Origin: Patescibacteria group bacterium
GTDB taxonomy: Bacteria > Patescibacteriota > Minisyncoccia > Portnoybacterales > UBA2143
DNA length: 64,000 nucleotides
Direction: 5' to 3'
NCBI GenBank assembly: GCA_018830295.1
Contig: JAHJSM010000003.1
Location: 2,512 to 66,511, forward strand
Shown: positions 56,016-64,000 of the stretch, piece by piece
Numbering within the stretch: position 1 is the stretch's first letter
Layout: every line of letters starts with the position of its first letter
The notes under the pieces: model-generated
The model's input: the letters and a program-made list of their open reading frames with translations, nothing else
What the model was told of the DNA's origin: nothing
Databases searched by the model: none
Program-made: the position numbers and the translations under genes

Positions 56016-59000
56016 TTAGTATCCCACCGCATCCGCAGAAGGCGTTTCTAGCTCTTCAACCACCGGTTCCTCGGCAACAGGTTCCTCAGTCACCGGCTCA
56101 GGAGAGGACACCTCCACCACCGGCTCCGGCTCGTCCGCTTCAGGGACTTCTTCGGGGGCTGCCCCCGCAACGGGGGCAGCCCCCTCTTCATCAACCACCG
56201 GGGGCAGTCCCTCGTCCGCGGGGGCTGCTCCCTCTTCATCAACCACAGGTTCCTCAACCACCGGTTCAACCACCGGGGGCAGTCCCTCGTCCGCGGGGGC
56301 TGCTCCCTCTTCATCAACCACCGGCTCCTCCGCAACCGCCCCGCATTCCCCGGCGACTGTTTGCGCCGCCCCACTCGCAACAAAGAAACAATACGGTAGT
56401 CCCGTCACTCTATCATACAATGTAATCCCTGCCTGCTCTTCAACTCCTCCTCCAACCTTCAATTGCTCTGTTTCAATATTTTTCGCCTTAATTTTATCAA
56501 CAACTAAAACTCCTTCCTCGTCCAAAACCAATCCCAATTCCGCCAAATCCATCCTTAATTCCTCCAGCGAATCCACTTCAACCAAATCCCCATTTTCATC
56601 CCGCTCCACTGTCAACAACGCCTCCAATTCCTCTAATCTATTATTCAACGCTTTAACCCCCGCTAAAGCAAACGAAGTATAATCATACAAACTAACCGAC
56701 TCCCCATCAGAAATCATCCCAATAGGGGGCAGTCCCCCGTCGCGGGGGCTGCTCCCGTCCGCAACTTCCCCTCCCCCATACCTCCCCATTTCCATCCCCG
56801 CAATCAGCCCTAAAATCTCAGCGTAATCCGCCTCCTCTAAATATGTAACTTCCATTTCATCCGCGCGCGGCAAATAGACATCCCATCCGTCAGCAATCGC
56901 GCTCCCCGCGCCCCGCCCAATCGTCAAGATATTCGTCGGCGACGAAGTAGCAATCCCAAACCGCCCCATCGTATCCAAAACCAACCCCACAGGGGGCAGA
57001 GGGGGCAGTCCCCCGTCGCGGGGGCTGCTCCCGTCCCATGCCTCCACCAACCTAATCAACCCCGCCTCCTCCAACTTCAGTGTTAATCCGTCCGTCAACT
57101 GCTCCATTCCCTCCATCCGCGCGTCAATCTCCTCAAACTGCTCTGGAATAACATCTCTAATATCCAACGCCAAATCGGAAATTTCATCCATCGCGAGCGT
57201 TAATTTAGCGTCAATCAAAAGCAACTGCGGAGAAACAATTTCGTTAATATCATCCTCTAAGTTCAAATTATCAATCGCTCCAGCAATCAAGATATTAACT
57301 TCATCTTCAATCTCCATCGCCGCGACCCGCTCCGTCACTTTATCTTCCACCTCTTCCACTGTGAGCGACTTATTCCGCCGCGAAATCAAAACATTAATCA
57401 CCCCTTCGCCTTCTTTAAGTCCCTCAAGCGCTACCCCAACCGTCGGGTCCCCCGCCCCTGCCCGCATAATATACCCTGGAACCGAAGCCGAAGTAAGCGA
57501 ATCCCCCGGGCGAATAGGTCCGCCTTCCGCAGAGACCTTCGCTGGCACCTGCCCAAGCATTCCAATAATAGCGTAATGCGGATTGTCTTCCCGCCTTTCA
57601 TCAGAAGGAGCGTTCCCCAAAAATGCCGGATTAGTTGAAACAATACCCATGATATTTCCATCAGCCGCCCGTTCGCACCGCTTGACCGCGTTTTCCCGTT
57701 CAATATCAACGCAAACCGCCTCGCCTGATTTCAAATCGGTATCAATGGAATAATAGTATTCAGCGTAGTCAGCCGAACCGGAAGTCCAAGCGTTGGTCGC
57801 GTTGACATAAGCCACATTAACGCCGTCGCTATTATGGTCAACTGTCAGCCGATAATCTGGCGTCGTGTCCCCGATGCCGACGTTGCCGCTATTTCTTTTG
57901 ACTGCAATTCCAAGAATTTCCGACCCAGCATCATAACCGACGATTTTAAGCACATAATTTGCTTCATCAAAAAGTATTTTAGCACCGTATGTGGAAAGGC
58001 CACGTTCCATAAAAGAGATTCCTTTATTGGTTCCCTCGGGGATATTCAAAGATAACAATTCATTTGGACTCGTCGTCCCGATGCCGACGTTGCCCGAGGC
58101 GTTTATACGCATTCGTTCCTTAATACTGGAACTATCATTTGTGTGGAAAGATAAATAACCAGTAGCAGAACCGTCAGTCGCAGATTCTTTTCTGCCCGCA
58201 ATTGCTCCAAAAATCTGTTTGCTCCCCGCACTGTTGTAAAAACCTCCCATACCGATTGCACCGCCTTTGTCTATGGCAAAAGAATCGCTGGTCATTGCCG
58301 CAATGTGAACCTGTGCATCTCCATTAAGTCCATCCGCCAAATTCTGATTGGCTTTGACAACATCTAAGGTTGTCCCCGGACTCACTGTCCCGATGCCGAT
58401 ATTACCCGCCGAAGTGACAACGAAGGAGGGCGTTGCTCCAACTGTGAAATCCCCACCAATATACATAGCTCCAGTAGTAGTTGCATTGCCATCAACCGTT
58501 AAATTACTTCCAAAGTGACCTGCTCCTTGAGTAAATAGACCCGTAGTAGAAGAAGCATATCCTGTTGTAACTAAATTCCCCCCTGAAGTAACCGTCAATA
58601 GATTTGCGCCGGTGGATGAGGCAATAGTAAATATATCTGAACTACCAGCTGTGCCTTGAATAGATAGTTTAGATAGTGGCGTTGTTGTTCCTATGCCGAC
58701 GTTGCCGCCGACAACTGATAACGTCTCAGTAAATGCACCACTATTTCCATAGCCAATTCCTACTCTACTCGCACTGTTTACGGAAAAAATTTGCAACAGA
58801 TTATTTTGAATACCAAACCCGTAACCAGTTCCCGCGGCATTGTCATATAATGCAATCTTATTTCCCACTGCTGTACCTAATGACAATGGAAAACTCGGCC
58901 CCGTCGTCCCGATGCCGACGTTGCCGCTAAATACTGCCTTACCTCCTATACTTAAAGTATCAGTGGTAGTTGCCGAACCCATTGTCAATCCAAAGGCGGT

Positions 59001-62000
59001 CGTGTCTGCGGCAGTATTAACAAGAAATGCGTCATCTACATTAAAAGTCGTTCCAACTAAAGTTAAATTAGTTCCGCCTAAATAGGTCGTGTTTGTGTCA
59101 GTCGCGTCTAATGTATTGCCAGTCCAAGCTAAATTAGTCCCTGCGGTTATCCGATTAGAGGGAGTGTCGTAAAAAGTATTCCAATTAGTCGTGCTTGCTG
59201 ATAAAGGGATTATGTATCCAGTAGTTAGGGCAATATCGTCTAAAGCCAACTCAATGCCTGTTGCTCCGACTGTTAAATTGGTTTCTGATGAAATATCAAC
59301 GGAAGTGCCTAATGTAATAATAGCGTCAGCGTTTCCAGCGGTTAAAGTGCCTACCGTAACTAAACTTGGAAGCGAACTTATTAAAGCGTGGGTTGTGGTC
59401 GCATACCAAGTTGTAAGAGGAAAATATCCCGCTATTGAGTGGTTGCCCCAGCCATAAGCGGTATTCCAGTTTCCTGAATTATTTGTGATTGAGGTGTCCC
59501 AAGCCGAGCCCGTGCTTAATGCTATTCCAGCTGCTGGATAGACCATACCTCCGCTTGGAGTGGTTGTTGCTATAACTAATCCAGTAGCGTCAACAGCTAA
59601 AAATGAACCAGCGGCTGTTGCTAAAGATGAGATATAAAAAGTATCTGTTGTCGTGGCAGAGTTCATTGAAAGCCCCCCAGACATTGTATCAGTAGTATTT
59701 AATACATAACTATCATTTGCCGTAACATAATATCCACCCGAAGCGTGATCCCCCCAACCGAATGCGGAATTCCACTCGTCAGAATTGCCGCCAAAGGCGG
59801 CAAAATGTCCCGTTGTTGTCGCGTTTCCGCTAACTAAAAGATTATCATCTATGGTTAAATCTCCTAATGAATCGGCGATGTTCCCTTGAAAATCAGATGC
59901 GCCCGCGACGGTTAAGTTGTTGTTGAAAGTAGAGACGCCGTCGGCCGAGAATGTTCCCCCCGCGTGGATATTGGATTGGGTGAAGAGTCCCGCCGTCGTG
60001 CTTGCGTAGCCGGCGACATATTCATTTCCGATTACATGGAATTTGTAGCTCGGCGCCGTCGTCCCAATCCCGACGTTGCCGCTTTCACTCACATAAAGCA
60101 ACGACGCCCCTGTGGAACTGGCGATGTTCATAACTGGTTGTCCTGCTGTGCCTTGAACGCTTAGTTTGGTTAAAGGTGAAGTTGTGCCTATCCCGACGTT
60201 GCCGCCGTCCAAAACAGTTATTCCATTACTTGCATTATCGTAAAGATGAAGTCCACTATCATTCGTCGCCGAGAGAGTATTCCCCGTGGAGAGTAAATTC
60301 CCAAGCCAAGAAGTCGTCGCTGAAAATAATGTTGAAGTCGCATTATTAAATTGCGCGTAATCAACAGTCGTAGCAAAAGTATTTGGAATATCATTACATC
60401 GTCCAGCACCGATAACTTGAACTACGCCTGTCGCGCTTGCCCTTGAAACTCTTGCCACGGCTTGAATACAGTCGCTTGCTCCTGTCGGGCGTGTGCTTGT
60501 TAATGTTCCCGGAGTAGTACTTAAAAATAAAGCGTCATTTACGGCATAAGCCGAAGTATTTATTCCTGATAAAACGCCGGATGATATTACTGTTCCATTT
60601 GTATTATTTGATATACTGCCTGTGGTAAGTCCAATTGCAGGATATTTCGCGCTGTCATCAGCGTCAGCTAAATCTATCGTTATCCTGCCTTGTCCGACAT
60701 TATATCCTGTAATATAAACTGGAGTGCCTGCTGATATAGTAGAACCACTTGTATTTCTAACTAAAATCAGAGAAGAGGCTGAACTTACATTAACAGGACT
60801 ATTCGGGTGCGACTGTATCATCCAACCGCCCACATCTTCCATAAATACTAAAGTCATTATTTGGTCAGGGGCTAATACTCCGTTTGTCCCTCCGTGGAAT
60901 ATTGACGAACCTGACAATACTGAATTGTCTTGAAGTTCTATTGTGAAAGAACCTGTGTTTTGAATATATAAAATTTGCCCTTGCGTAGATGAAGCGATAG
61001 TCGGGGTGCCTATCATTACATAATCAGCGTCAGATGAGATATTAAGCAAGGAATTTGTTGAAACTATCGCAGTTGTAGAAGCTGTTAATACTTGCGTGGT
61101 ATTAGGAGAAGTGAATAATCTTTTTGTGGTTAAGTCGCCGTCCACCCTCGCATTGCCATAAACATCCAGCTTGTATGCAGGAGAAGTCGTGCCTATGCCG
61201 ACATTTCCCGCAAATGTCGCACCCTCGCCTACCCGTAATTCCCCCGAAGCGTTTAAGTCGCCTGCGGTGAAGTTGAAATACCCGTCATCTACGCCTACGG
61301 ATAAATAACCCGTTGTGGTTAGGTTGCCTGTTTGGGTGATGGCTCCGTTGAAGGCGGTGTTGTGGGCAATAATTCCGTTGGCGACAAAGTTGTGCGTTCC
61401 TTCTACTTCTATGTCATAGACCTGTTCAGGAGGAAGGATGCTAATTCTCGCAATTTTGACGAATTTGACGGAGCCGAAACTCTCCTCAACATCCGATGAG
61501 CTCCCGAGTTCCGCCAAATTCGCGACGGCGATTGTGTCGCCTTCGCTTAATTCAGCGACGCGCGTCCATCGCGAACTTGACAGAGTATCCGCGTCGCTGT
61601 TATTATTCTCTTGTATGTCTAAATTATCATCTTCATTTACTATCATTGATAATAATAATTTGCGGGGCGTTTTGGCTCCGCCAAAAATGTTGTCCAAAGA
61701 ACTATTGGAAGATATTTTGGATTTGGTCTCATATTCAAGACCTAAAGTGGCAGAAAAATTAAACAAAGATTTCAAAGAAGCCAAAAAAGAAAGCTTAGTT
61801 GACGGCGAAGCATTAAGAAAATCATTGAAAATATAATTATGTTCCGCTATAATTTCACCCGCAAAGCCGCCAAAGAAATCAAAGGAATGCCCCGCAATAT
61901 CCAACGCCGAATTTTCAACGACATCTTGACTATTTGCCGCCTCAATCATCCTTTGCAGGACAGAAGCGTTTTGAAACTCCGAGGGAAATACAGCGCGCCC

Positions 62001-64000
62001 ACTTTCCGACTGCGTTCCGGCAATTACCGAATTATTTTCCGTATCATTAACCATATCATCGTCATCGGAAGCGTCAGACACAGGCAAGAGGGATATTGAT
62101 TTGTTCAGCGCAAGATATGGATGATTCCCCGTCGTTCTAATTATCCTGCTGTCTTCTGTTTCAATCTCGTAAATGGTCTTAACCCCCATATCCATCAACT
62201 GCTTAATTTTGGCAGGCGTTAATTCGCCTGTTTTTTCATTAAGGGATAAGACATAGTCGCCCGGCTGGACTTCGTCTATACGGGTGTATTTGGGGGCAGC
62301 CCTCGCAACGGGGGCTGCCCCCGAATTCACTATCGGCAAGAGCGTATCCCCCGTCACGCATTGCCCGTCCACGGTTAAGTCCTTCTTAATGTATTGGCTT
62401 CCAGTTGTCGTCGCGTTTCCTTCTATGTTGAGATAACCGAGAACAGAGAGATTGTCGGAGATGGTTGTCGTGCTGTTGTTTGCGGCGAGGTCTATGTTTA
62501 AGTCGCCGTTTGTGTCTATGGTGAATGAGGCGTATTTGGATGTTGAGACATCATAAGAGAGCCGCAATTGTTCGGTCGTTGAGGAGGCGTGAATGCGGCC
62601 GACTACAGCCAGAGCTGAATCTGGCGTGGTTGTCCCGATGCCGACATTGCCCGATGTTCCTACGCCGCTGGACGGGCCCACATAGAATGTTGGGATATTA
62701 CTATTAAATCCAATGGCAAAAGAATTGTCTTTATTGTGAACTAATGGAACGGCACCACTTACTCCAGAACCTAACGCAAAAGTCGAATCCGCGTCGCTAC
62801 TAATACTAATGTATTTTCCTATACCAAAAGAAAAATTTCCGGCATTAGTAACTCCATACCCTAATGCTATAGCGTCTTGTCCGCTTAAAGTAAGATCTCT
62901 GCCAAATCCCTTTGAGTAACTTCCGCTGGCGATTATATCACTTCCAATTGCGATCTTGCCAGAAGTGGAGAAGAGAATATCCCCTGTTCCCGCAACAGTT
63001 AGGCCACTCTTAAGGGTAGTAACCCCGTCGGCGGAGAATGTTCCGCCAATATGCCCATTCCCCTGCGTAAAGAATCCTGCTGTCGTAGAGGCGTAGCCAG
63101 TAATATTAAGATTGCCTGTTTGGGTGATTGCTCCGTTGAAGATAGTGTTGTGGGCGATAATGCCGTTGGCGACGAAGTTGTGAGTTCCTTCTACCTCTAT
63201 GTCATAGACCTGTTTTCTGCCCGTTGGCTCAATGGAAACAATTTTTTCCCAAATCGCTAAATTACCCTCGCCAGCCGCCGCGATTTCCATACCCGGTTGA
63301 AGATAGATAACTTTTGTCCACTTTTGACTATTGACAGAAATTTGAGGTTTAGTATTATTAAAGTATATGCGATTAAATAAATCCCAATTTGAAGCGATTT
63401 CCAGTTTTTTTGTTGATTTAGCAAAGATATTGTTCGCCTCAACTGTGGTTGGGTTTTTCATTCCAGGTTCCTCCGGAATTGTTAATATGCCCGTATTCAC
63501 CATCGGTTCTGTATCCACTTTGGGGTTGTTCACATTGAGCGTTATTTTATTAAAGTCCGAATAATTATGAATTATCTTATTGTCGCTTATATTATTACTT
63601 GTATCATGGCTACCATTATTTTCATTTGGGCCATGGAACATAGAAAATAAATTATGAATAATATTATTCTCTACATTATCGCCGGCATTGTCATTTTGAC
63701 TATGTTCGGTGTCGCTTTCTTCTATAATTCCAAATCTAACTAAGTATGGGTGGTTGCCCGTCGTTTCAATCTGTTTACCCGATTCCGTGGTTAAACGAAA
63801 TGTCGTTTTGACCCCCATATCCATCAACTGCTTAATCTTGGCAGGCGTTAATTCGCCTGTTTTTTCATTAAGGGATAAGACATAGTCGCCCGGCTGGACT
63901 TCATCTATGCGGGTGTATTTGGGGACAGCCCTCGCAACGGGGGCTGCCCCCGAATTCACTATCGGCAAGAGCGTATCCCCCGTCACGCATTGCCCGTCCA
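56016..64000 (-). CDS. giant tail-fibre-like repeat surface protein (>2656 aa, N-terminus beyond window) containing two intein-like modules and many hairpin-element insertions
   Basis: The reading frame is open for 7.97 kb. It holds many GNVGIGTT(S/T)P beta-helix-like repeats and a conserved C-terminal-proximal segment ADYAEYY...GEAV...IMGIVSTNPAFLGN. The acidic tail contains tandem duplications. Confidence 0.7.
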   Translation of the reverse strand, partial: DGQCVTGDTLLPIVNSGAAPVARAVPKYTRIDEVQPGDYVLSLNEKTGELTPAKIKQLMDMGVKTTFRLTTESGKQIETTGNHPYLVRFGIIEESDTEHSQNDNAGDNVENNIIHNLFSMFHGPNENNGSHDTSNNISDNKIIHNYSDFNKITLNVNNPKVDTEPMVNTGILTIPEEPGMKNPTTVEANNIFAKSTKKLEIASNWDLFNRIYFNNTKPQISVNSQKWTKVIYLQPGMEIAAAGEGNLAIWEKIVSIEPTGRKQVYDIEVEGTHNFVANGIIAHNTIFNGAITQTGNLNITGYASTTAGFFTQGNGHIGGTFSADGVTTLKSGLTVAGTGDILFSTSGKIAIGSDIIASGSYSKGFGRDLTLSGQDAIALGYGVTNAGNFSFGIGKYISISSDADSTFALGSGVSGAVPLVHNKDNSFAIGFNSNIPTFYVGPSSGVGTSGNVGIGTTTPDSALAVVGRIHASSTTEQLRLSYDVSTSKYASFTIDTNGDLNIDLAANNSTTTISDNLSVLGYLNIEGNATTTGSQYIKKDLTVDGQCVTGDTLLPIVNSGAAPVARAAPKYTRIDEVQPGDYVLSLNEKTGELTPAKIKQLMDMGVKTIYEIETEDSRIIRTTGNHPYLALNKSISLLPVSDASDDDDMVNDTENNSVIAGTQSESGRAVFPSEFQNASVLQRMIEAANSQDVVENSALDIAGHSFDFFGGFAGEIIAEHNYIFNDFLNASPSTKLSFLASLKSLFNFSATLGLEYETKSKISSNSSLDNIFGGAKTPRKLLLSMIVNEDDNLDIQENNNSDADTLSSSRWTRVAELSEGDTIAVANLAELGSSSDVEESFGSVKFVKIARISILPPEQVYDIEVEGTHNFVANGIIAHNTAFNGAITQTGNLTTTGYLSVGVDDGYFNFTAGDLNASGELRVGEGATFAGNVGIGTTSPAYKLDVYGNARVDGDLTTKRLFTSPNTTQVLTASTTAIVSTNSLLNISSDADYVMIGTPTIASSTQGQILYIQNTGSFTIELQDNSVLSGSSIFHGGTNGVLAPDQIMTLVFMEDVGGWMIQSHPNSPVNVSSASSLILVRNTSGSTISAGTPVYITGYNVGQGRITIDLADADDSAKYPAIGLTTGSISNNTNGTVISSGVLSGINTSAYAVNDALFLSTTPGTLTSTRPTGASDCIQAVARVSRASATGVVQVIGAGRCNDIPNTFATTVDYAQFNNATSTLFSATTSWLGNLLSTGNTLSATNDSGLHLYDNASNGITVLDGGNVGIGTTSPLTKLSVQGTAGQPVMNIASSTGASLLYVSESGNVGIGTTAPSYKFHVIGNEYVAGYASTTAGLFTQSNIHAGGTFSADGVSTFNNNLTVAGASDFQGNIADSLGDLTIDDNLLVSGNATTTGHFAAFGGNSDEWNSAFGWGDHASGGYYVTANDSYVLNTTDTMSGGLSMNSATTTDTFYISSLATAAGSFLAVDATGLVIATTTPSGGMVYPAAGIALSTGSAWDTSITNNSGNWNTAYGWGNHSIAGYFPLTTWYATTTHALISSLPSLVTVGTLTAGNADAIITLGTSVDISSETNLTVGATGIELALDDIALTTGYIIPLSASTTNWNTFYDTPSNRITAGTNLAWTGNTLDATDTNTTYLGGTNLTLVGTTFNVDDAFLVNTAADTTAFGLTMGSATTTDTLSIGGKAVFSGNVGIGTTGPSFPLSLGTAVGNKIALYDNAAGTGYGFGIQNNLLQIFSVNSASRVGIGYGNSGAFTETLSVVGGNVGIGTTTPLSKLSIQGTAGSSDIFTIASSTGANLLTVTSGGNLVTTGYASSTTGLFTQGAGHFGSNLTVDGNATTTGAMYIGGDFTVGATPSFVVTSAGNIGIGTVSPGTTLDVVKANQNLADGLNGDAQVHIAAMTSDSFAIDKGGAIGMGGFYNSAGSKQIFGAIAGRKESATDGSATGYLSFHTNDSSSIKERMRINASGNVGIGTTSPNELLSLNIPEGTNKGISFMERGLSTYGAKILFDEANYVLKIVGYDAGSEILGIAVKRNSGNVGIGDTTPDYRLTVDHNSDGVNVAYVNATNAWTSGSADYAEYYYSIDTDLKSGEAVCVDIERENAVKRCERAADGNIMGIVSTNPAFLGNAPSDERREDNPHYAIIGMLGQVPAKVSAEGGPIRPGDSLTSASVPGYIMRAGAGDPTVGVALEGLKEGEGVINVLISRRNKSLTVEEVEDKVTERVAAMEIEDEVNILIAGAIDNLNLEDDINEIVSPQLLLIDAKLTLAMDEISDLALDIRDVIPEQFEEIDARMEGMEQLTDGLTLKLEEAGLIRLVEAWDGSSPRDGGLPPLPPVGLVLDTMGRFGIATSSPTNILTIGRGAGSAIADGWDVYLPRADEMEVTYLEEADYAEILGLIAGMEMGRYGGGEVADGSSPRDGGLPPIGMISDGESVSLYDYTSFALAGVKALNNRLEELEALLTVERDENGDLVEVDSLEELRMDLAELGLVLDEEGVLVVDKIKAKNIETEQLKVGGGVEEQAGITLYDRVTGLPYCFFVASGAAQTVAGECGAVAEEPVVDEEGAAPADEGLPPVVEPVVEEPVVDEEGAAPADEGLPPVVDEEGAAPVAGAAPEEVPEADEPEPVVEVSSPEPVTEEPVAEEPVVEELETPSADAVGY
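56154..56190. repeat. GC hairpin unit in giant ORF tail
   Basis: gggggctgcccccgcaacgggggcagccccc. Confidence 0.85.
56196..56322. repeat. tandem duplication (~75 nt x2) in C-terminal tail of giant ORF embedding hairpin elements
   Basis: caccgggggcagtccctcgtccgcgggggctgctccctcttcatcaaccac occurs twice and encodes EEGAAPADEGLPPVV repeats. Confidence 0.6.
56725..56757. repeat. GC hairpin unit in giant ORF
   Basis: gggggcagtcccccgtcgcgggggctgctccc. Confidence 0.8.
56992..57035. repeat. GC hairpin unit in giant ORF
   Basis: gggggcagagggggcagtcccccgtcgcgggggctgctccc. Confidence 0.8.
61438..61836 (+). CDS. Phd/YefM-like antitoxin candidate (start uncertain)
   Basis: The C-terminal part, FTIIDNNNLRGVLAPPKMLSKELLEDILDLVSYSRPKVAEKLNKDFKEAKKE, parallels YefM ([48 protein letters not shown]). 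The stop lies 2 nt before the toxin ATG. It lies antisense inside intein-like module 2. Confidence 0.45.
   Translation: MLILAILTNLTEPKLSSTSDELPSSAKFATAIVSPSLNSATRVHRELDRVSASLLLFSCMSKLSSSFTIIDNNNLRGVLAPPKMLSKELLEDILDLVSYSRPKVAEKLNKDFKEAKKESLVDGEALRKSLKI
61839..62099 (+). CDS. type II toxin, RelE/ParE family
   Basis: The 86-aa sequence KLRGKYSAPTFRLRSGNYRIIFRIINHIIVIGSVRHRQEGY matches the RelE/ParE consensus (kL.g....y.lRvGdYRiiY.i.d....v..v.hRkdvY). It is translationally coupled to the upstream ORF. Confidence 0.75.
   Translation: MFRYNFTRKAAKEIKGMPRNIQRRIFNDILTICRLNHPLQDRSVLKLRGKYSAPTFRLRSGNYRIIFRIINHIIVIGSVRHRQEGY
62292..62322. repeat. GC hairpin unit inside intein-like module 2
   Basis: gggggcagccctcgcaacgggggctgccccc. 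Confidence 0.85.
63147..63989 (-). other. intein-like module 1 of giant ORF
   Basis: Cys at 63987-63989 (CVTGDTLLPIV...) ... QVYDIEVEGTHNFVANGIIAHN, then Thr. The core is low-complexity with no recognisable endonuclease motif. It contains hairpin element NSGAAPVARAVP. Confidence 0.7.
63921..63951. repeat. GC hairpin unit inside intein-like module 1
   Basis: ggggacagccctcgcaacgggggctgccccc. Confidence 0.85.

Follow-up and report, generated by a model that had tools for sequence, protein, structure and literature searches.

A predicted toxin–antitoxin operon nested antisense within an intein of a giant gene from a Patescibacteria group bacterium

Two inteins in a giant gene

The 64,000-nt stretch of DNA analysed here (the window; positions 2,512 to 66,511 of contig JAHJSM010000003.1 in assembly GCA_018830295.1 of a Patescibacteria group bacterium) carries on its minus strand a giant open reading frame (ORF), whose nearest partial homologues are annotated as Candidatus Portnoybacteria (Patescibacteria). 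This ORF is host to two inteins, and inside one of them (intein 2) lies, on the opposite strand, a pair of small genes for a RelE-type toxin and its putative antitoxin, which are the subject of this study (Table 1). The original prediction, made from the letters of the sequence without database searches, had placed a complete type II toxin–antitoxin (TA) module inside an intein-like segment at 61359-62360, and this segment proved to be exactly one intein, end to end. Its Cys1 is encoded at 62358-62360, the C-terminal His-Asn ends at 61359 and the +1 Thr is found at 61356-61358. Moreover, intein 2 and the other copy (intein 1) are alike in that both start with Cys, contain the block B motif TTGNHPY, end in GIIAHN followed by T, and split one repeated extein motif, in which VDGQ stands ahead of the intein and T(A/I)FNGAITQTGNL behind it; the spliced junction predicted at intein 2 reads ...YIKKDLTVDGQ joined to TAFNGAITQTGNL...

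A Pfam scan of the giant ORF gave a match of intein 2 to PF14890 (Intein_splicing) with an E value of 1.8e-38, and no endonuclease family (LAGLIDADG, HNH or other) was found by it in the core of intein 2. Residues T76, T77 and H80 in block B are invariant across an alignment of 34 sequences. In the AlphaFold2 model of intein 2, the predicted local distance difference test score (pLDDT) is 94-98 at residues 1-90 and 260-334, a short insertion excepted, and 32-57 across most of residues 95-255 in the core, where the host-frame peptide reads, for example, SVIAGTQSESGR. The best Foldseek matches of the lobes are the DnaB and RecA mini-inteins (TM-score on the target 0.79-0.88, E values of 1e-8 to 1e-6), and the only endonuclease-bearing inteins among the matches listed, 7qsu and 1dq3, are at ranks 49-50 with weak scores. 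Thus, as judged from sequence and structure model, intein 2 is a canonical class-1 intein with a mini-intein fold, for which splicing is predicted. Assignment to the bacterial intein-like (BIL) domains was rejected, since both copies and their relatives have the His-Asn and the +1 Thr, and BIL2 structures come below inteins in the Foldseek results. In addition, the near-identical arms and unrelated cores that had been noticed in the two intein-like modules can now be given in figures: the inteins have 196 nt in common on the N side at 97% identity and 121 nt on the C side at 86%, and their cores are unrelated.

Table 1. Features of the giant gene, its two inteins and the genes carried in them on the opposite strand
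Feature	Position in the window	Strand	Remarks
Giant ORF	56016..64000	-	At least 2661 codons, past window end; repeat-rich (GNVGIGTT) putative surface protein; host of both inteins
Intein 2	61359..62360	-	334 aa (amino acids); Cys1, block B TGNH, C-terminal His-Asn; PF14890
Intein 2, N-terminal splicing lobe	62112..62360	-	CVTGDTLLP...TTGNHPYL
Intein 2, core in host frame	61572..62111	-	Stop-free; antisense read-out of cargo; predicted largely unstructured
Intein 2, C-terminal splicing lobe	61359..61571	-	RWTRV...VYDIEVEGTHNFVANGIIAHN
Predicted sigma-70-type promoter TTGACA-N18-TATTAT, upstream TG	61577..61606	+	11/12 consensus; ends 8 nt ahead of antitoxin ATG
Antitoxin gene	61615..61836	+	73 aa; outside recognised families; conserved upstream partner of homologous toxins
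Promoter-like site TTGAAA-N17-TATAAT	61825..61853	+	11/12; spans toxin ATG
RelE-family toxin gene	61839..62099	+	86 aa; PF05016; codon-aligned antisense to host frame
Terminator-like hairpin and T-run, cargo strand	62211..62240	+	Antisense of LNEKTGELTPA in N lobe
Intein 1	63147..63989	-	281 aa; arms as in intein 2, core different
Predicted promoter TTGACA-N16-TATTAT	63331..63358	+	11/12; ends 8 nt ahead of first intein 1 cargo ORF
Intein 1 cargo	63367..63743	+	Three tightly packed small hydrophobic ORFs; gaps 2 and 3 nt
Intein 1 cargo ORF 1	63367-63564	+	65 aa; DUF6722-like
Intein 1 cargo ORF 2	63567-63650	+	27 aa
Intein 1 cargo ORF 3	63654-63743	+	29 aa

The toxin and antitoxin genes

The 86-aa ORF had been assigned to the RelE/ParE family, and the assignment holds, for the product matches PF05016 (ParE_toxin) with an E value of 4.4e-9 and 37.2 bits, above the curated cut-off of 23, over essentially the full profile (positions 1-88 of 89). 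A second match is to PHROG 1213, 'RelE-like toxin' (E 1.4e-11). The solved structures nearest to the profile of the toxin family are archaeal RelE3 (3bpq), aRelE (1wmi) and E. coli RelE, and the toxin is placed in the RelE branch of the superfamily for this reason. Furthermore, the family shows little or no variation in the segment FRLRSGNYRIIF and in the C-terminal RHRQEGY, both of which align with RelE3; as mapped by eye, these residues may correspond to K52, K54, R61, R81 and Y87 of E. coli RelE. NCBIfam and PADLOC gave no match for the toxin or the antitoxin, and an exact-sequence look-up of the toxin returned no record from a public collection of about 15 billion proteins (5.8 billion clusters), which fits the notion that gene callers suppress the toxin ORF in favour of the giant ORF.

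The stop of the upstream ORF lies at 61836, 2 nt ahead of the toxin ATG, as first described. The extent and the family of this ORF had to be revised, since it had been read as a 132-aa ORF from 61438 with a Phd/YefM-like product. Four toxin homologues from the databases (49–67% identical, 86–87 aa) are each preceded by a 70-76-aa ORF at a gap of 2–14 nt, and these partner ORFs align with the window frame (44–69% identity) only from the Met at 61615; a homologous 70-76-aa ORF is found upstream of the toxin in every related locus having upstream sequence. Moreover, the predicted promoter is downstream of 61438. The 132-aa ORF was rejected on these grounds, and its GGAGG and ATG (61430-61440, plus strand) are the antisense of the conserved intein motif ILPPEQ; an equivalent over-extended ORF is present in the related intein locus L064. 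The Phd/YefM label was abandoned too, because no Pfam family, PF02604 included, matched the antitoxin at E values up to 5, and hhalign probabilities were 0.1% against E. coli YefM and 0.3% against RelB.

Homologous pairs also occur as free-standing modules. In the nearest of these (L001, L003 and L006/L056) the toxin (86–87 aa) and the antitoxin (70–72 aa) are each 62–69% identical to those of the window and the spacing is alike, so that the TA module can be accepted as real. L001 is flanked by a Fic gene and a DUF5647 gene, L003 adjoins a HicB-like gene, L006 and L056 are within long contigs, and a further module, L007, adjoins a transposase. The strand opposite these free-standing modules is ordinary and full of stops. 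Since homologous pairs stand free elsewhere opposite ordinary strands, the sequence comparison indicates that the TA frame is the ancestral coding frame. In the window, as had been proposed, the pair sits antisense in the endonuclease-insertion loop of what is a bona fide intein.

Avoidance of stop codons in the host frame

Over the 334 codons of 61359-62360 the host frame contains no stop, against 20 and 35 in the other two minus frames; across the TA module (61615-62099) the counts are 0 in the host frame and 9 and 22 in the other minus phases. The minus-strand frame is therefore free of stops across the pair, as stated originally. The accompanying argument that an open run of 330 codons could hardly be due to chance did not survive, because the stretch overlying the module is no longer than about 162 codons and the antisense phase of the antitoxin is open in free-standing homologues too; it follows that only the toxin half of the module is informative. 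For a stricter measure, both protein sequences were kept and synonymous codons were redrawn from the codon usage of the window. The host frame of the window was open in 0.4% of 20,000 such resamplings (mean 3.8 stops), and a repeat with 5,000 trials agreed. The probability of zero stops obtained in this way is 0.004 for the window, 0.015 for L002 and 0.0008 for L065, two further loci with an intein-embedded pair, and the free-standing modules have 4–10 stops in the phase matching the host frame.

The choice of codons in the toxin gene points in the same direction. Since the toxin is codon-aligned with the host frame, only TTA, CTA and TCA are dangerous in it. These three account for 0/10 of the Leu and Ser codons in the window toxin and for 10/21 in the window antitoxin, which is read in another phase (one-sided p 0.008). 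When the three intein-embedded toxins are pooled, the fraction is 0/38, compared with 25/60 (42%) in their own antitoxins (p 5e-7) and 18/74 in free-standing toxins (p 3e-4). Within the free-standing modules the usage in toxin and antitoxin is alike (p 0.59). Thus, stop codons in the host frame are specifically avoided.

The comparison of the window with L002 shows how the two strands differ in constraint. The toxins are 66% identical, with a ratio of nonsynonymous to synonymous differences (pN/pS) of 0.30 and a pS of 0.72, and the antitoxins are 69% identical, with a pN/pS of 0.30 and a pS of 0.63; the same pN/pS of toxin and antitoxin is found in comparisons with free-standing copies. Over the toxin, identity in the host frame is no more than 44% and the pN/pS is 0.75. 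By this measure purifying selection acts on the proteins of the TA frames, and in the host frame only stops are excluded. Because synonymous sites are near saturation between the embedded copies and yet no stop has appeared in the host frame, continuing selection rather than a lucky insertion is indicated. The earlier suggestion that both strands are kept coding is borne out in this sense, by the low pN/pS on one strand and by the purging of stops on the other.

Predicted promoters and terminators

The three best promoter-like sites of the region 61200-64000 all match 11 of 12 consensus positions and all are on the plus (cargo) strand (Table 1). A promoter-like site is located directly upstream of the first cargo ORF not only in both window inteins, but also in L002, L064 and L065; the one upstream of the antitoxin in L065 is perfect (12/12) and has the TG. 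The geometry TTGACA...TGnTATnAT...8 nt...ATG also recurs in L002 and in the free-standing L007. Since the gap between promoter and ATG is 8 nt, the cargo mRNA is probably leaderless. On the same strand, a terminator-like hairpin with T-run in the N lobe, antisense of LNEKTG..PA, is common to both window inteins, L063, L064 and L065. This motif is partly dictated by the conserved amino acids, and we regard it as a weak candidate for a terminator.

Other cargoes and their possible exchange

In place of a TA pair, intein 1 carries a cassette of three ORFs (Table 1), which are kept as ORFs in L064. There the homologue of cargo ORF 1 matches DUF6722 with an E value of 4.7e-5, which is below the family cut-off, and the intein cores of L068 contain similar DUF6722-like ORFs of 66-68 aa. 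TA pairs were found in further inteins. In L002, a Logan contig, a RelE-type pair lies antisense between TTAEHPYL and VYDLSIEGTHNFVANGIIAHNT, and the core is stop-free. In L065 (GCA_043816765.1), which has a divergent intein and an intact host ORF, there is an antisense pair of 96 aa and 88 aa, of which the toxin is homologous to that of the window (hhalign 98%, E 6e-14) and the antitoxin gives a weak match (hhalign 66%). Furthermore, L066 (1127-1724) and L068 (704-1238 and 6064-6378) have pairs of DUF433 and DUF5615 (PIN-like) genes antisense in their intein cores with the host frame open; going by the profile matches (E 1e-22 for DUF433 and 6e-13 for DUF5615), this is a second, unrelated TA family at the same intein position.

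The site of intein 2 itself is occupied in two related loci. The inteins of L064 and L063 split the same extein site as intein 2, with extein DNA 74% and 89% identical to that of the window, respectively, and their cores hold other things: the three-ORF membrane cassette in L064 and a tRNA-like RNA in L063. The latter (671-743, on the strand opposite to the host gene) is 71 nt long, is without a D arm and has a promoter-like site 10 nt upstream; it is called 'tRNA-???' by ARAGORN, matches the Rfam tmRNA tRNA-like domain with an E value of 1.6e-12, below the gathering score, and has a fold z-score of -2.8. No RNA gene was given by ARAGORN and Rfam in the window at 60500-64000. Together with the other TA pairs lying antisense in other inteins, these different cores at the orthologous site support the idea, put forward originally, that the core is a swappable cargo slot. 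Between the window and L064 the intein arms are 92–95% identical in DNA (N lobe 92%), more alike than the adjoining extein (74%), and the two window inteins have their 196 nt in common at 97%; both findings are in keeping with cargo exchange through recombination or conversion among copies of the intein. Cargo is also present on the sense strand. The NYN domain (PF01936) is found in related intein cores of the GNVGIGTT proteins P0023 and P0042, and the same combination of PF01936 with an intein annotation occurs in P0038 and P0070; this domain is possibly a nuclease cargo.

Some further observations concern related loci and the giant gene. The motif ATPTADLLYHN in the host frame of L063 recurs in P0026, and the related ATPTASSLYPE is present in P0011. 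In L068 and L069, TA genes are interspersed among rows of short ORFs, every one of which comprises hardly more than an intein and a few extein residues; such ORFs may represent fragments of genes, silent cassettes or artefacts of assembly. In L008-L011 (e.g. L010, 2721-3533), a related pair, whose toxin is 40% identical to that of the window and has 0/8 forbidden codons, is wholly antisense in a stop-free ORF of about 271-274 codons, which begins with a membrane anchor like that of the giant protein and has no intein motifs; these loci were not counted as support. The 3' end of the giant gene (window 56050-56500) has a G+C content of 57–67%, compared with about 45% elsewhere, and contains proline- and acid-rich direct repeats, e.g. 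VVDEEGAAPADEGLPPVV. Within the N lobe of both inteins there is a GC-rich hairpin with 22-nt arms (62284-62330 and 63913-63959) encoding NSGAAPVARAAPKY, without a T-run beside it on either strand. The equivalent in L063 (316-362) has matching changes in both arms, by which the peptide is altered, and since the arms changed together the comparison suggests that the hairpin is under selection for nucleic-acid structure.

Discussion

From these sequence features we consider it likely that a functional type II TA operon is nested antisense in the loop of a class-1 intein that usually holds a homing endonuclease. The operon would consist of the gene for the 73-aa antitoxin, then that for the 86-aa RelE-type toxin with a predicted mRNA-interferase activity; it would be transcribed from its own near-consensus promoter, and translation of the toxin would be coupled to that of the antitoxin via the 2-nt gap. 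The giant gene would be translated through the reverse complement of the operon, so that the intein lobes would be joined by a linker of about 180 meaningless residues, which protein splicing would discard along with the intein. Because the linker is spliced away, the host would need only a stop-free frame from the cargo DNA, and the loop could tolerate any insert that keeps the frame open. Antisense orientation would be required for an independent operon, because its own stops TAA, TGA and TAG become TTA, TCA and CTA for the host. Once inside the loop, the codons of the cargo would be filtered for host-frame stops. For the cargo, the intein loop would offer a harmless landing site; for the intein, losing the allele would carry a cost because of the addiction module, which could thereby stand in for the absent homing endonuclease and protect the intein or the locus, and which would travel with intein copies when these recombine. 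Such a nesting of two selfish elements is the best-supported model, and the rival explanations are less well supported.

Several points weigh against this model. Transcription of the cargo, protein splicing and toxicity are inferred from sequence. The antitoxin has no match to a Pfam, NCBIfam or PDB family (none better than E 2 in PDB) and no identified DNA-binding domain, and its antisense phase is open in nearly all members of the family, free-standing ones included. The low pLDDT of the core may come in part from a shortage of aligned homologues. The terminator-like sites are no commoner than in shuffled sequence. In L002 the host frame is shifted between core and C lobe by one extra nucleotide (GATATT-C-GCGGTG, at about 930-960), which may reflect either a true pseudogene or an error in the contig, and L066 and L068 look like fragments of intein-bearing genes, not intact giant genes. 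Moreover, L065 and L066 were located via called host ORFs, so that an open frame was in part a precondition for finding them, and only L002 and the free-standing controls come from searches based on the toxin. For this reason the use of the recurrences as independent statistics was rejected in part.

One rival explanation is that the TA module is an inert passenger, which was inserted in a phase open by chance and is now neither expressed nor functional, with the host frame alone shaping the sequence. An antitoxin outside the recognised families would suit it, and a constraint from the host frame alone would explain the lack of stops. However, both ORFs are intact and have the canonical lengths of their families, the family-invariant residues are kept, the pN/pS of 0.30 is found between embedded copies near synonymous saturation and is the same against free-standing copies, and the window, L002 and L007 have all retained a near-consensus promoter at the 8-nt distance, which makes an inert passenger rather unlikely. 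The notion that the plus-strand ORFs are no genes at all, but chance antisense ORFs with a spurious family likeness, draws on the fact that the frame lying codon for codon antisense to a gene is frequently long and open; it is as good as refuted already, because the toxin scores above the curated PF05016 cut-off along the whole profile and the same module stands free elsewhere opposite a stop-rich strand.

The remaining alternatives concern the host strand. The window ORF is open over at least 2661 codons including both inteins, the splicing residues are all present and the lobes are confidently folded, all of which is hard to reconcile with a dead host side, that is, an intein 2 or a giant gene yielding no spliced functional protein and a frame open for historical reasons or by chance. 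The frameshift in the host frame of L002, the fragmentary intein ORFs of L066 and L068 and the unconstrained core peptide would be in keeping with it, but the openness has a probability of about 0.004 given the cargo proteins, the toxin is without forbidden codons when adjacent antitoxins have 42%, and the avoidance has held in copies diverged to synonymous saturation, so that we regard it as unlikely. It might also be supposed that the core is truly double-coding and the host-frame peptide a functional domain, e.g. a splicing regulator. In the AlphaFold2 model the core does have helices (residues 132-143 and 167-205), and one block of it reaches a pLDDT of about 80. Over the toxin, however, identity between the window and L002 is 44% in the host frame (pN/pS 0.75) against 66% in the toxin frame, no Pfam family is found in the core, the Foldseek alignments to mini-inteins are confined to the two lobes, and orthologous inteins have entirely different cores; a functional core domain is therefore very unlikely.

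Going beyond the single operon, we put forward tentatively, and with clearly less confidence than the model for the window, that such inteins, which Patescibacteria and DPANN archaea have in genes for giant surface proteins, might constitute an unrecognised composite mobile element, in which the endonuclease slot has become a general antisense expression cassette. In such an element the promoter may lie on the C-lobe side and the terminator-like hairpin in the coding sequence of the N lobe, the cargo may be exchanged by recombination between the conserved arms, and addiction may replace homing for persistence. The cargoes may comprise the RelE-type and DUF433/DUF5615 TA pairs, the DUF6722-like membrane-peptide cassettes and the tRNA-like RNA, and standard gene callers may systematically hide them.

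If the model is true, an addiction module carried as cargo would allow an intein to persist when a homing endonuclease is lacking, a new solution to the cycle of gain, decay and loss of homing elements, and the loop that is spliced out with an intein would be a safe site for independent genes. The locus would also be a clean natural case from bacteria of about 0.5 kb coding on both strands, with a simple reason for its tolerance, and the phase-specific avoidance of TTA, CTA and TCA would serve as a measurable signature for spotting further cases. Genes like these are invisible to standard annotation, and consequently the inventories of TA systems and small proteins in genomes of the candidate phyla radiation (CPR) and DPANN may be incomplete. 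In addition, the tolerance of a linker of about 180 residues would be relevant to the design of payload-carrying inteins.

Comparison with known systems

In homing-endonuclease inteins, such as PI-SceI (VMA) and PI-PfuI, the HINT domain is likewise interrupted between blocks B and F by a passenger that is removed by splicing. Their passenger is an in-frame nuclease domain that drives homing, whereas that of intein 2 is predicted to be a two-gene addiction operon that runs antisense to the host and has a promoter, starts and stops of its own. With mini-inteins (Ssp and Npu DnaB, Mtu RecA), intein 2 has the same catalytic residues in common and its lobes have their best structural match; the linker of mini-inteins is short, whereas in intein 2 it is about 180 residues long and is the antisense read-out of the operon. 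The module itself resembles those of the RelBE type (archaeal RelE3/RelB3 and aRelE/aRelB) as a bicistron with the antitoxin first, a gap of 2 nt and an 86-aa PF05016 toxin. It differs from them in an antitoxin unrelated in sequence to RelB, YefM and Phd, and in being embedded antisense in a coding sequence that constrains the codon usage of the toxin.

Group I introns may carry ORFs on their antisense strand, in which case a self-splicing selfish element is a harmless site for a separately expressed gene. However, the RNA of an intron is free of the need to be translatable, whereas an intein must remain translatable, which is why a signature of stop avoidance is present here. As in other overlapping antisense genes (overprinting), about 485 nt are protein-coding on both strands; unlike in those, one product alone appears to be under selection at the amino-acid level and the other would be destined for removal, which would ease the usual conflict. 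In the full-text literature covered, which is incomplete, we found neither TA genes inside an intein nor any independently expressed antisense gene inside one. The component parts are all of known kinds, and it is the architecture in which they are combined that appears to be new.

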